Of a DNA stretch of 64,000 nt, positions 26,951-28,717 are shown one piece after another. Location: sequence record MT446396.1, one strand, 5' to 3'. The number at the start of each line of letters is the position of its first letter. Within the stretch, counting starts at the first letter, position 1. Position numbers and translations under genes: made by a program. The notes below the pieces were generated by a model. It did no database searches. It was not told where the DNA came from and worked only from the letters and a program-made list of their open reading frames with translations. The stretch comes from Escherichia virus TH22.

Positions 26951-27423
26951 ATATTAAATTTGGACAGACTATCCCTAAAGGTTATGTTGTTGAAATTGAA
27001 ACCTGGGAAAATGACGGTGATAACTATAAAACCCAGACAATATTTGGTGTAGAAGAACAAGAAATCCAACAGTACAAATATATCCTAGAACTTTTCCATG
27101 GTTCGCATTGCAACAACCCGGATAAATGTGGTAATTCAGAATGGGACGTAGTTAAAGACTTTATTATCGCACACATTGAATCTGGTGTAAAATCTGGCCA
27201 ATTAACTCCTGAATTCATTAACAAAACACTTTGTATTGAAAATCTGGAAAACCTGGTTGAAGGTGGCAATGGCCAGGAATTTGAATTATTGTGTTCTCTC
27301 CAGGAATTGCTGGGCGAGCCGGTGGAATATGATAGCGTTTTGCGCGTAGTTTCGTGGGTAAAATTATACATCATCGAAGAAGAAATCCAAATACCAAACG
27401 TTAAAGCACTTGATATGCTTTAA
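26947..27423 (+). CDS. Hypothetical protein
   Basis: ATG at 26947 overlaps previous stop (ATGA); track ORF start at 26941 is a non-ATG codon. Confidence 0.55.
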   Translation: MNIKFGQTIPKGYVVEIETWENDGDNYKTQTIFGVEEQEIQQYKYILELFHGSHCNNPDKCGNSEWDVVKDFIIAHIESGVKSGQLTPEFINKTLCIENLENLVEGGNGQEFELLCSLQELLGEPVEYDSVLRVVSWVKLYIIEEEIQIPNVKALDML

Positions 27424-27501
27424 TAAAAACGCGTTATTATTAATAAGTACCCTCTATTACCAAAGGTTCTTCCCTCAAAGAGCCTTTCATAATAGAATTA
27501 A

Positions 27502-27575
27502 GGCCCTGTAGCTGGACGGTCAAGCGAGCGACTCATAATCGCTGGATGGTGGTTCGATTCCACCCAGGGCCACCA
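27502..27575 (+). tRNA. tRNA with anticodon CAT (Met, or Ile if lysidine-modified)
   Basis: Cloverleaf folds by hand: acceptor GGCCCTG/CAGGGCC, D-loop with GG, anticodon stem AGCGA/TCGCT, loop CTCATAA, T-arm GGTGG-TTCGATT-CCACC, encoded CCA. Confidence 0.85.
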
Positions 27576-27593
27576 AACTTATTTTAAATTATC

Positions 27594-27701
27594 ATGGCGA
27601 TAGGTATTGTAGATGCGGTTCGATTCCGTCCGGGGTAAGTGCCCTAGCATGCTTGGAGCATGAGTGACTTAATATTGGTGGTTCGAGTCCACCCCGCTAT
27701 G
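27594..27701 (+). ncRNA. Non-canonical tRNA-like element (two T-arm-like motifs)
   Basis: Contains GCGG-TTCGATT-CCGT and GGTGG-TTCGAGT-CCACC T-arm-like hairpins, but no 5' acceptor pairs at tRNA distance; could be a stable small RNA or decayed tRNA. Confidence 0.3.
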
Positions 27702-27709
27702 AACAAACA

Positions 27710-27785
27710 CGAGGCATAGCTCAGAAGGAAGAGCAAGGACCTTCTAAGTCCTAGGTCGTAGGTTCGATTCCTACTGTCTCGACCA
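27710..27785 (+). tRNA. tRNA-Arg (anticodon TCT)
   Basis: Acceptor CGAGGCA/TGTCTCG, D-arm GCTC...GAGC, anticodon stem AGGAC/GTCCT with loop CTTCTAA, T-arm GTAGG-TTCGATT-CCTAC, encoded CCA. Confidence 0.9.
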
Positions 27786-27958
27786 AACAAGAAACCGGGT
27801 CGCTACCGGTAAGTCGTCGGACTGAAGTTCCCTGTTTAAGGACTGGCATTAATAAATCTTTACGATTTGTTGATGTCCCCTTATATCACAGCTGAAACGG
27901 CGCACCTAATTAACGATTCGAGGAAATATCTTTGCCGTAAGCCGAGTAGCGTTTTTGA

Positions 27959-28050
27959 CGGAACGTTCGGATATGGTCGAGATATGGCCTTTTAAAAATA
28001 TTGAGTAGCGTCAACTACTTGATAACCGGGTTCAAATCCCGGCGTTTCGT
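27959..28050 (+). ncRNA. Non-canonical tRNA-like element
   Basis: Perfect T-arm CCGGG-TTCAAAT-CCCGG plus acceptor-like 3' strand pairing with CGGAACG 92 nt upstream, but no valid D or anticodon arms; internal hairpin GAGTAG-N6-CTACTT. Confidence 0.3.
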
Positions 28051-28100
28051 ACAAACACTTGCCTAGCAGGTGGAACCCCGACAAGGTTGCCACAAGGTAT

Positions 28101-28129
28101 AGCCCCTTCCGAAAGGTTGGGGCTTTTTT
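28101..28129 (+). terminator. Rho-independent terminator after tRNA region
   Basis: AGCCCC-loop-GGGGCT hairpin followed by TTTTTT; a TATAAATA motif follows at 28129-28136. Confidence 0.55.
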
Positions 28130-28162
28130 ATAAATATAACGTACCCATAACTAAGGAAATTT

Positions 28163-28717
28163 ATGAAACTTTTAAAATATCTAAGCTGGATTCTGTTAGT
28201 ACCACTGGATTTCATTTCAATGATTCTGGCTGTTATCCTTGCACCATTTGTAGTGCCGTTCCATAACAAAAAGACTGGTAAGCTTCCGTTCGGATTTGAC
28301 TGGATGATGACATACGATAATCCAATTGATGGTGACCGTGGTCATGTTAAACGCTGGGAAAAAATCAGAAAATGGCCGTTAGGCGTTTACTTCCAGCGAG
28401 TGGCCTGGCTCTGGCGAAACAAAGCCTACAATTTTGCTTATCATAAGCTGGGCCGCGATTGCGATTCTAAATTCCATTATAAAGGTAATCCTGATGTTGA
28501 ATCGGGCTCCCCGGATAAAGCTCACCATGGCTGGCTCTGGATGTGGAATGATAATGCATGGGGCGTGTTCGCTTCCGTACCTTATCTTAAAGTTGGTGGA
28601 ATCACCTTTTATCTGCGCGTGTATTGCGGTTGGAAGCTCAAAAGTCTTCTGTCCCGTCCTATCCCGAAAGCTATGTTAGCCTTTCATATCAATCCCTTCC
28701 GTTTTTATAAGAACTAA
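28163..28717 (+). CDS. Hypothetical membrane protein
   Basis: 184 aa, hydrophobic N-terminal segment; RBS GGAAATTTATG. Confidence 0.6.
   Translation: MKLLKYLSWILLVPLDFISMILAVILAPFVVPFHNKKTGKLPFGFDWMMTYDNPIDGDRGHVKRWEKIRKWPLGVYFQRVAWLWRNKAYNFAYHKLGRDCDSKFHYKGNPDVESGSPDKAHHGWLWMWNDNAWGVFASVPYLKVGGITFYLRVYCGWKLKSLLSRPIPKAMLAFHINPFRFYKN

Follow-up and report, generated by a model that had tools for sequence, protein, structure and literature searches.

The rnaC (species 1 RNA) orthologue of Escherichia virus TH22: comparative evidence for a tRNA-like four-way junction with a probable kissing loop

The analysed window, a 64,000-nt stretch of the Escherichia virus TH22 sequence (MT446396.1), contains a tRNA region in which the following elements were distinguished: (i) a tRNA-Met gene (27502-27575) and (ii) a tRNA-Arg(tct) gene (27710-27785), both recognized by ARAGORN and Rfam, (iii) an orthologue of rnaD (species 2 RNA; 27787-27907, plus strand), delimited by alignment with T4 71053-71171 and with a computed fold, (iv) directly downstream of it, an orthologue of rnaC (species 1 RNA; 27913-28051, plus strand; 139 nt, ends transferred from the T4 annotation) and (v) the intrinsic terminator of the tRNA operon (28101-28130, plus strand). 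Positions 27400-28200 match about 800 genomes of T4-like phages (Straboviridae, Tevenvirinae), the nearest being those of Escherichia phages TH15, VR25 and VR5. According to the T4 annotation, rnaD (species 2, 119 nt) and rnaC (species 1, 139 nt) lie directly after tRNA-Arg and are followed by the terminator; a co-linear alignment of 27700-28140 revealed the same order (tRNA-Arg, rnaD, rnaC, operon terminator) on the same strand in TH22, with rnaC as the final RNA before the terminator in both phages.

The comparison with T4 rnaC and rnaD, proposed in the initial annotation, identified the element examined here as the rnaC orthologue. T4 rnaC (NC_000866, 70908-71046; T4s001) aligns end to end with 27913-28051, with 4 differences in 139 nt (97% identity); the four substitutions fall one each in the base preceding the acceptor stem, the long arm, the hairpin stem and the T loop. 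A covariance model built from 15 lineages (R1) scores 27913-28051 at 167.9 bits (E 5.5e-44). By homology and synteny, 27913-28051 is thus the orthologue of an already known RNA of T4-like phages. The initial annotation had placed a tRNA-like element at 27959-28050; a tRNA-like RNA is indeed encoded there, but these 92 nt are only the 3′ two-thirds of the 139-nt rnaC, and the proposed 5′ boundary is 46 nt short.

The predicted terminator downstream of the element was confirmed as a hairpin with a GAAA tetraloop (28101-28124) followed by a U run, and is conserved with T4. A tandem U.U interrupts the terminator stem of TH22 but not that of T4, which is perfect at the same place, and a simple scan overlooked the TH22 terminator because of these two internal U.U mismatches. 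The late-promoter-like TATAAATA that had been reported to follow is present at 28129-28136; the motif itself is not enriched, with 8 occurrences in the 64-kb window against 5.8 expected. It overlaps the terminator U run and lies 27 nt upstream of an open reading frame of 184 aa (28163-28717; phrog_2143, function unknown). T4 lacks both the TATAAATA that directly follows the terminator in TH22 and this ORF. Two isolated T-arm-like pieces, GCGGTTCGATTCCGT and GGTGGTTCGAGTCCACC, were observed in the gap between tRNA-Met and tRNA-Arg (27576-27709), where neither ARAGORN nor Rfam made a call. These may be tRNA remnants, and they probably correspond to the "first" tRNA-like element of the initial annotation. 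Phage JS10 carries an intact tRNA-Asn in the same gap, to which TH22 27576-27709 does not align.

Homologues of rnaC were collected by blastn, with the TH22 sequence as the query against 799 phage records and then with progressively more distant members as queries, by a pattern scan of IMG/VR, and with the covariance model R1. The resulting comparative set comprises 34 distinct sequences from about ten phage genera, covering Tequatrovirus, Mosigvirus, Karamvirus, Kanagawavirus, Moonvirus, Winklervirus, Tegunavirus and Marfavirus, as well as unclassified Citrobacter and Erwinia phages; the smaller MAFFT alignment comprises 15 lineages. The Tegunavirus group, as used here, consists of Yersinia phage phiR1-RT and two IMG/VR relatives. 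The position of rnaC within the tRNA cluster differs between phages: in Kanagawavirus it follows tRNA-Met, and in Karamvirus and the Erwinia and Citrobacter phages it either sits between the tRNA-Trp and tRNA-Gly genes or follows tRNA-Trp. Spacers of 3-7 nt separate it from the neighbouring tRNA genes in Karamvirus AS6 and CW742, in Erwinia phage COW86c and in Citrobacter phage Ursula. Phage JS10 has the flanks common to rnaC loci, yet rnaC itself is absent. The blastn comparison showed that rnaD is far less widely conserved than rnaC. Three phages have weak secondary matches of R1 (19-29 bits) at other places in their tRNA clusters (loci L036:1070-1196, L026:6094-6183 and L047:1442-1530); by eye these are ordinary or fragmentary tRNAs that fit the acceptor and T-arm portion of the model. 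In the search for a bacterial counterpart, a pattern scan of genome contigs gave at least 80 loci, and all the matches listed were chance occurrences, none of them a hit of the covariance model at E values up to 1.

The comparative data support a fold of rnaC as a tRNA-like four-way junction composed of a 7-bp acceptor stem, a 70-nt long arm, a 10-bp hairpin and a T arm. From the 5′ end, the predicted order at the junction is the acceptor 5′ strand, the helix at 27921-27990, an 8-nt linker, the hairpin at 27999-28024, one unpaired A, the T arm and the acceptor 3′ strand. RNAalifold, applied to the MAFFT alignment, and the single-sequence minimum free energy (MFE) structure agree on this fold. 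For the 15 lineages, 97.3% of the cells are paired and compensatory changes occur at 24 of the 44 pairs; none of 500 shuffled alignments reached any of the measures, and slid controls were about 40% paired. Over all 34 sequences, 93.3% of the cells are paired, with compensatory changes at 33 of 51 pairs. The full 139-nt RNA has an MFE of -51 kcal/mol (z -4.7). Its structure is different from, and much stronger than, that of the isolated 92-nt fragment (27959-28050), which folds at -28.1 kcal/mol (z -2.6) with the stem proposed in the initial annotation.

The two ends of the 139-nt RNA form, as judged from the alignments, the acceptor stem. Its 5′ strand, CGAUUCG (27914-27920), pairs with the 3′ strand CGUUUCG (28043-28049), and two of the seven pairs show compensatory changes (G-C to A-U and A-U to G-C). 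A tandem U.U interrupts the stem in 31 of the 34 sequences; the Tegunavirus group has U-A and C-G pairs instead, and the stem of Yersinia phage phiR1-RT is a perfect 7-bp helix (CAGUCCG/CGGACUG). The initial annotation had paired the same 3′ strand with CGGAACG at 27959-27965. The complementarity it described is real (7 pairs, one of them G-U), but this pairing shows no compensatory change in any lineage, the two bases of its third pair do not match in 10 of the 15 lineages, and the covarying partner is 27914-27920. In lineages with a U to C change in the 3′ strand, the strand at 27914-27920 changes from A to G, but the CGGAACG strand changes from G to A. In the supported fold, CGGAACG comprises the end of the long-arm apical loop and the 3′ strand of the apical stem, and is partnered with 27949-27955.

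The acceptor 3′ strand is followed by a U73-like base and an A-C-A tail, the whole segment spanning 28043-28053 on the plus strand. The tail has the form U-N-C-A in all 34 sequences (N being A, U or C), with the bases equivalent to C75 and A76 invariant. It is U-A-C-A in TH22 and U-ACA or U-UCA in other lineages, and a true U-CCA tail was found only in Marfavirus (the group of Klebsiella phage Marfa; loci L017:9221-9374, L018 and L019). The 3′ end annotated in T4 corresponds to position 28051, i.e., N74, and the annotated 5′ end precedes the first acceptor pair by 1 nt; the ends of rnaC as annotated are therefore not exactly those of a tRNA.

The long arm (27921-27990, plus strand) stands where a tRNA has its D and anticodon arms. 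It is an interrupted helix of about 26 pairs found both by RNAalifold and in the MFE structure, with compensatory changes at 18 of the 23 pairs counted in three helices. In the Klebsiella, Citrobacter and Edwardsiella lineages its sequence is largely replaced and the pairing retained. The arm is capped by the apical loop UUGACG (27955-27960). It is followed by a linker (27991-27998), U-rich and then A-rich, which is single-stranded in all models and differs between lineages in both sequence and length. The linker region of the T4 group (27988-27998) reads CCUUUUAAAAA and includes CUUUUAA, which is identical to the anticodon loop of E. coli tRNA-Lys(UUU), the target of PrrC. Mimicry of this loop was rejected as a feature of the family, given that the supported fold leaves the linker single-stranded and that it varies freely in other lineages, and the match in the T4 group is probably a coincidence.

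The hairpin (27999-28024, plus strand) occupies the position of a type II tRNA variable arm and exposes the 6-nt loop CGUCAA (28009-28014). Compensatory changes occur at 9 of its 10 pairs, and the loop is invariant apart from two covarying positions. The 6-bp hairpin originally described (GAGTAG-CGTCAA-CTACTT, 28003-28020) is thus present and backed by covariation, but it is only the upper part of a 10-bp stem. The 9-mer GAGTAGCGT, reported to recur, is found at 27944 and 28003; these are its only two copies in the 64-kb window, where 0.2 would be expected by chance. A functional repeat was rejected: the second copy diverges in other lineages through compensatory stem changes, the first is missing in the Klebsiella, Citrobacter and Edwardsiella lineages, and the repetition, not conserved as such, is treated here as coincidental.

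The T arm (CCGGG-TTCAAAT-CCCGG; 28026-28042, plus strand) consists of a 5-bp stem and the 7-nt loop UUCAAAU, exactly as read in the initial annotation, and is backed by covariation at pairs 2 and 3 of the stem (C-G/U-A and U-A/G-C/A-U, respectively). The loop is UUCRAnU in most lineages, and UGCAUGC or UGCAUUC in the Kanagawavirus and Winklervirus lineages. Three lineages (Enterobacter phages MY742 and IME523 and Kosakonia phage Kc304; L002, L003 and L011) keep the stem and have lost the T-loop consensus; a canonical T loop would therefore not be essential to rnaC function.

The apical loops of the long arm (UUGACG, 27955-27960) and of the hairpin (CGUCAA, 28009-28014) are exact reverse complements. 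They are fully complementary in all 34 sequences, and not one base beyond the loops takes part. The match has been preserved through two double substitutions that arose independently and affect different positions: three Tegunavirus sequences have UUGAUG/CAUCAA (C-G to U-A) and three Marfavirus sequences have UUGGCG/CGCCAA (A-U to G-C). The loop-loop pairing was absent from the model used for aligning the sequences. On the strength of these two covariation events, the loops probably form a 6-bp kissing loop that closes the body of the RNA into a compact shape. Most simply, the contact is intramolecular and joins the tips of the two non-tRNA arms; it could also be intermolecular, i.e., form a dimer. 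The sequence between the proposed acceptor strand and the T arm, described in the initial annotation as lacking D and anticodon arms and containing a 6-bp hairpin, is thus structured throughout most of its length, as part of a long arm followed by a hairpin, with loops that probably pair with each other.

Several traits of rnaC are tRNA-like: the ends form the predicted acceptor stem, the T arm lies directly 5′ of the acceptor 3′ strand, and the tail is U-N-C-A. A further trait, resembling type II tRNAs, is a hairpin placed one nucleotide before the T stem. No D arm, anticodon arm or conserved anticodon was found in rnaC by ARAGORN, by Rfam or among the 34 homologues, and rnaC would be unable to decode because the anticodon loop is absent. 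On this point the original description of a non-canonical tRNA-like RNA without canonical D and anticodon arms is upheld by ARAGORN, Rfam and the comparative test of the stems. With default settings, ARAGORN reported only tRNA-Met and tRNA-Arg in the TH22 stretch and no tRNA or tmRNA inside rnaC, so a clean type II fold was not obtained with this dedicated tool. An Rfam scan, both at the gathering threshold and at E values up to 10, gave no family covering rnaC, and the tRNA model RF00005 had no match in 27913-28051. The tmRNA models likewise had no match within 27913-28051, their weak matches being confined to the upstream region (27548-27802), in or between the tRNA genes, and the sole match of the YrlA model (RF02553) was at 27675-27734 (E 8.7), outside rnaC.

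Comparison with known systems shows which of these traits are shared. With type II tRNAs, rnaC has in common a 7-bp acceptor stem formed by both ends, the placement of the T arm, a stem-loop resembling the variable arm and a U73-N-C-A tail. It differs in having no D arm and no anticodon arm (5-bp stem, 7-nt loop), with a 70-nt helix there instead, in the 10-bp hairpin with a loop that would pair with the long arm, and in the tandem U.U of the acceptor stem; the Rfam tRNA model is blind to it. The mascRNA/MALAT1-type RNAs and the t-elements of plant mitochondria are likewise tRNA-like, embedded in a longer transcript, excised by tRNA enzymes (as would be the case for rnaC) and persistent. However, they are eukaryotic, unrelated to rnaC in sequence, and have a tRNA-sized cloverleaf without a kissing loop, and the only Rfam contact is a 17-nt match in the T arm (E 8.4). 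The tRNA-like domain of tmRNA and the bacterial, Y RNA-like YrlA resemble rnaC in combining an acceptor/T-arm module with a non-tRNA body; those RNAs act via SmpB and Rsr, respectively, whereas rnaC has no tag reading frame, no Ro-binding stem and no significant match to their models, and its ends form only the acceptor stem. Judged by these sequence and model comparisons, rnaC belongs to none of the mascRNA, t-element, tmRNA and YrlA families. In the HIV TAR-TAR* and ColE1 RNA I-RNA II complexes, as in rnaC, two 6-nt loops show complete Watson-Crick complementarity; those complexes are intermolecular, whereas the loops of rnaC lie in one RNA and by pairing would join two arms of the junction into a ring.

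The species 1 RNA of T4 has been known since the 1970s as a stable, tRNA-shaped RNA. It is among the oldest orphan RNAs in molecular biology and has no Rfam family. In T4, rnaC was seen by Northern blot and accumulates late (PMC9697503), transcription of the tRNA operon was reported to stop after the species I gene (PMC2330249), and the role of rnaC was called unknown in papers from 2010 to 2025 (PMC3014915, PMC9697503, PMC12685909). For rnaD, a 2025 study described a convergent SNP in a T4-like phage adapted to the semi-permissive E. coli ECOR34 (PMC12685909). By analogy with T4, a stable RNA of about 140 nt would accumulate during TH22 infection. Neither a function of rnaC nor the loop-loop pairing is described in the literature searched, which excluded the sequence papers of the 1970s and the 2003 review of the T4 genome, and an early drawing of the secondary structure may exist. 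The element itself being already known, what this analysis adds is a secondary structure backed by covariation, a corrected assignment of the acceptor stem, the probable kissing loop and the identification of misannotated tRNAs. The comparative model also allows precise and cheap mutational tests of the acceptor stem, the long arm, the hairpin and, above all, the loop-loop contact.

We lean, on balance, towards a joint explanation, in which the orthologue of rnaC adopts the four-way-junction fold with a kissing loop, is excised by tRNA-processing enzymes and serves as a non-decoding, protein-binding mimic of tRNA. An acceptor/T minihelix suffices as a substrate for RNase P, and a 3′ C-A contributes to recognition by this enzyme. 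rnaC would be co-transcribed with the phage tRNAs in a polycistronic transcript, and its acceptor/T-arm minihelix and NCA tail would lead to excision by the host tRNA-maturation enzymes, i.e., RNase P at the 5′ side and endo- and exonucleolytic trimming at the 3′ side; the compact shape would then stabilize the RNA. Excision by tRNA enzymes would explain both the tRNA slot that rnaC occupies in every genome and its stability. In the last step, the weakest of the scheme, the mimic would bind a tRNA-recognizing host or phage protein, titrating or recruiting it, and thereby provide a host-dependent advantage. Deletions of the T4 tRNA region are viable on laboratory hosts, and any function of rnaC would therefore be accessory. 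A host-dependent mimic is favoured because the tRNA region is dispensable on laboratory hosts, sequence conservation in nature is high, and the neighbouring rnaD underwent the convergent mutation described above.

The main rival to this explanation, to which we assign a minor though appreciable probability, is that rnaC acts only in cis, as a processing and stability module derived from a degenerate type II tRNA, whose minihelix provides cut sites for RNase P and 3′ nucleases. Such a module would punctuate the tRNA transcript and protect its 3′ end, leaving the stable 139-nt RNA as a by-product, like mascRNA at the 3′ end of MALAT1. This agrees with the constant location of rnaC in a tRNA cluster or at its end, with its place as the last RNA before the terminator in T4 and TH22, and with the fact that the acceptor stem, the T arm and the NCA tail are its most tRNA-like parts. 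However, punctuation needs the minihelix alone, whereas the 70-nt arm, the hairpin and the complementary loops have been kept by many compensatory changes across genera, and in Karamvirus and Erwinia phages rnaC lies between tRNAs that have their own processing signals. A function in trans is favoured because selection kept the whole body and not merely the minihelix.

A more far-reaching form of the mimic reading, which we regard as speculative and rather unlikely, is that rnaC represents a distinct structural class of tRNA mimic, in which an RNase P-competent acceptor/T minihelix is joined to a body closed into a ring by an intramolecular 6-bp kissing loop. Such an RNA would serve either as a decoy or as an adaptor, and its partner would be a host factor that binds tRNA, such as a defence nuclease directed at tRNAs or an enzyme of tRNA maturation. 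If true, it would provide T-even phages with a host-range advantage and, after 50 years, explain what species 1 RNA does.

It is also conceivable, but quite unlikely, that rnaC is a base-pairing RNA, one or both 6-nt loops of which pair in trans, either with a second rnaC molecule to form a dimer or with an RNA of the host or phage that is thereby regulated. No unpaired sequences of rnaC are more conserved than these two loops, and self-complementary loop pairs can also dimerize. Nevertheless, the loops changed jointly in two lineages, as expected for mutual pairing and unlikely with external targets, and six nucleotides are short for choosing targets.

That rnaC is a genuine, if unusual, decoding tRNA (a type II tRNA of 92-96 nt, e.g., tRNA-Lys(UUU), with the CGGAACG acceptor strand) is highly improbable: it draws on ARAGORN calls in two relatives and a relaxed call in TH22, and is refuted by the comparative evidence, namely the missing default ARAGORN and Rfam tRNA calls in TH22, an "anticodon" that varies among relatives, D and anticodon stems paired no better than in shuffled sequences, an acceptor pairing without covariation, a strongly supported competing fold, and a mature T4 RNA of 139 and not 94 nt.

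The calls in question are tRNAs of 94-96 nt that ARAGORN predicts over the 3′ part of rnaC: phage G4500 (MK327945.1; L055:273-366) receives a tRNA-Lys(ttt) and Erwinia phage COW86c (PP597396.1; L054:276-371) a tRNA-Phe(gaa). In TH22, the relaxed threshold yields only a "tRNA-??? (ttta)" with a four-base "anticodon". The type II cloverleaf of ARAGORN was rejected, as its D and anticodon stems are 47.7% paired over the 34 homologues, which is within the shuffled range, and clash with well-supported pairs. From these comparisons, the tRNA-Lys and tRNA-Phe calls over rnaC are artefacts. They have entered GenBank, where MK327945.1 annotates the tRNA-Lys(ttt) and OK210076.1 a matching tRNA-Phe over the same region. 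A covariance model like R1 would fix the misannotation of rnaC in more than 700 Tevenvirinae genomes. The loss of a single nucleotide from an A run suffices, in G4500, to push ARAGORN past its threshold. Small ORFs over rnaC in TH22 (42, 34 and 33 aa) were set aside as coding candidates, since the substitutions are patterned like those of a paired RNA; many GenBank records carry hypothetical-protein CDSs over rnaC.
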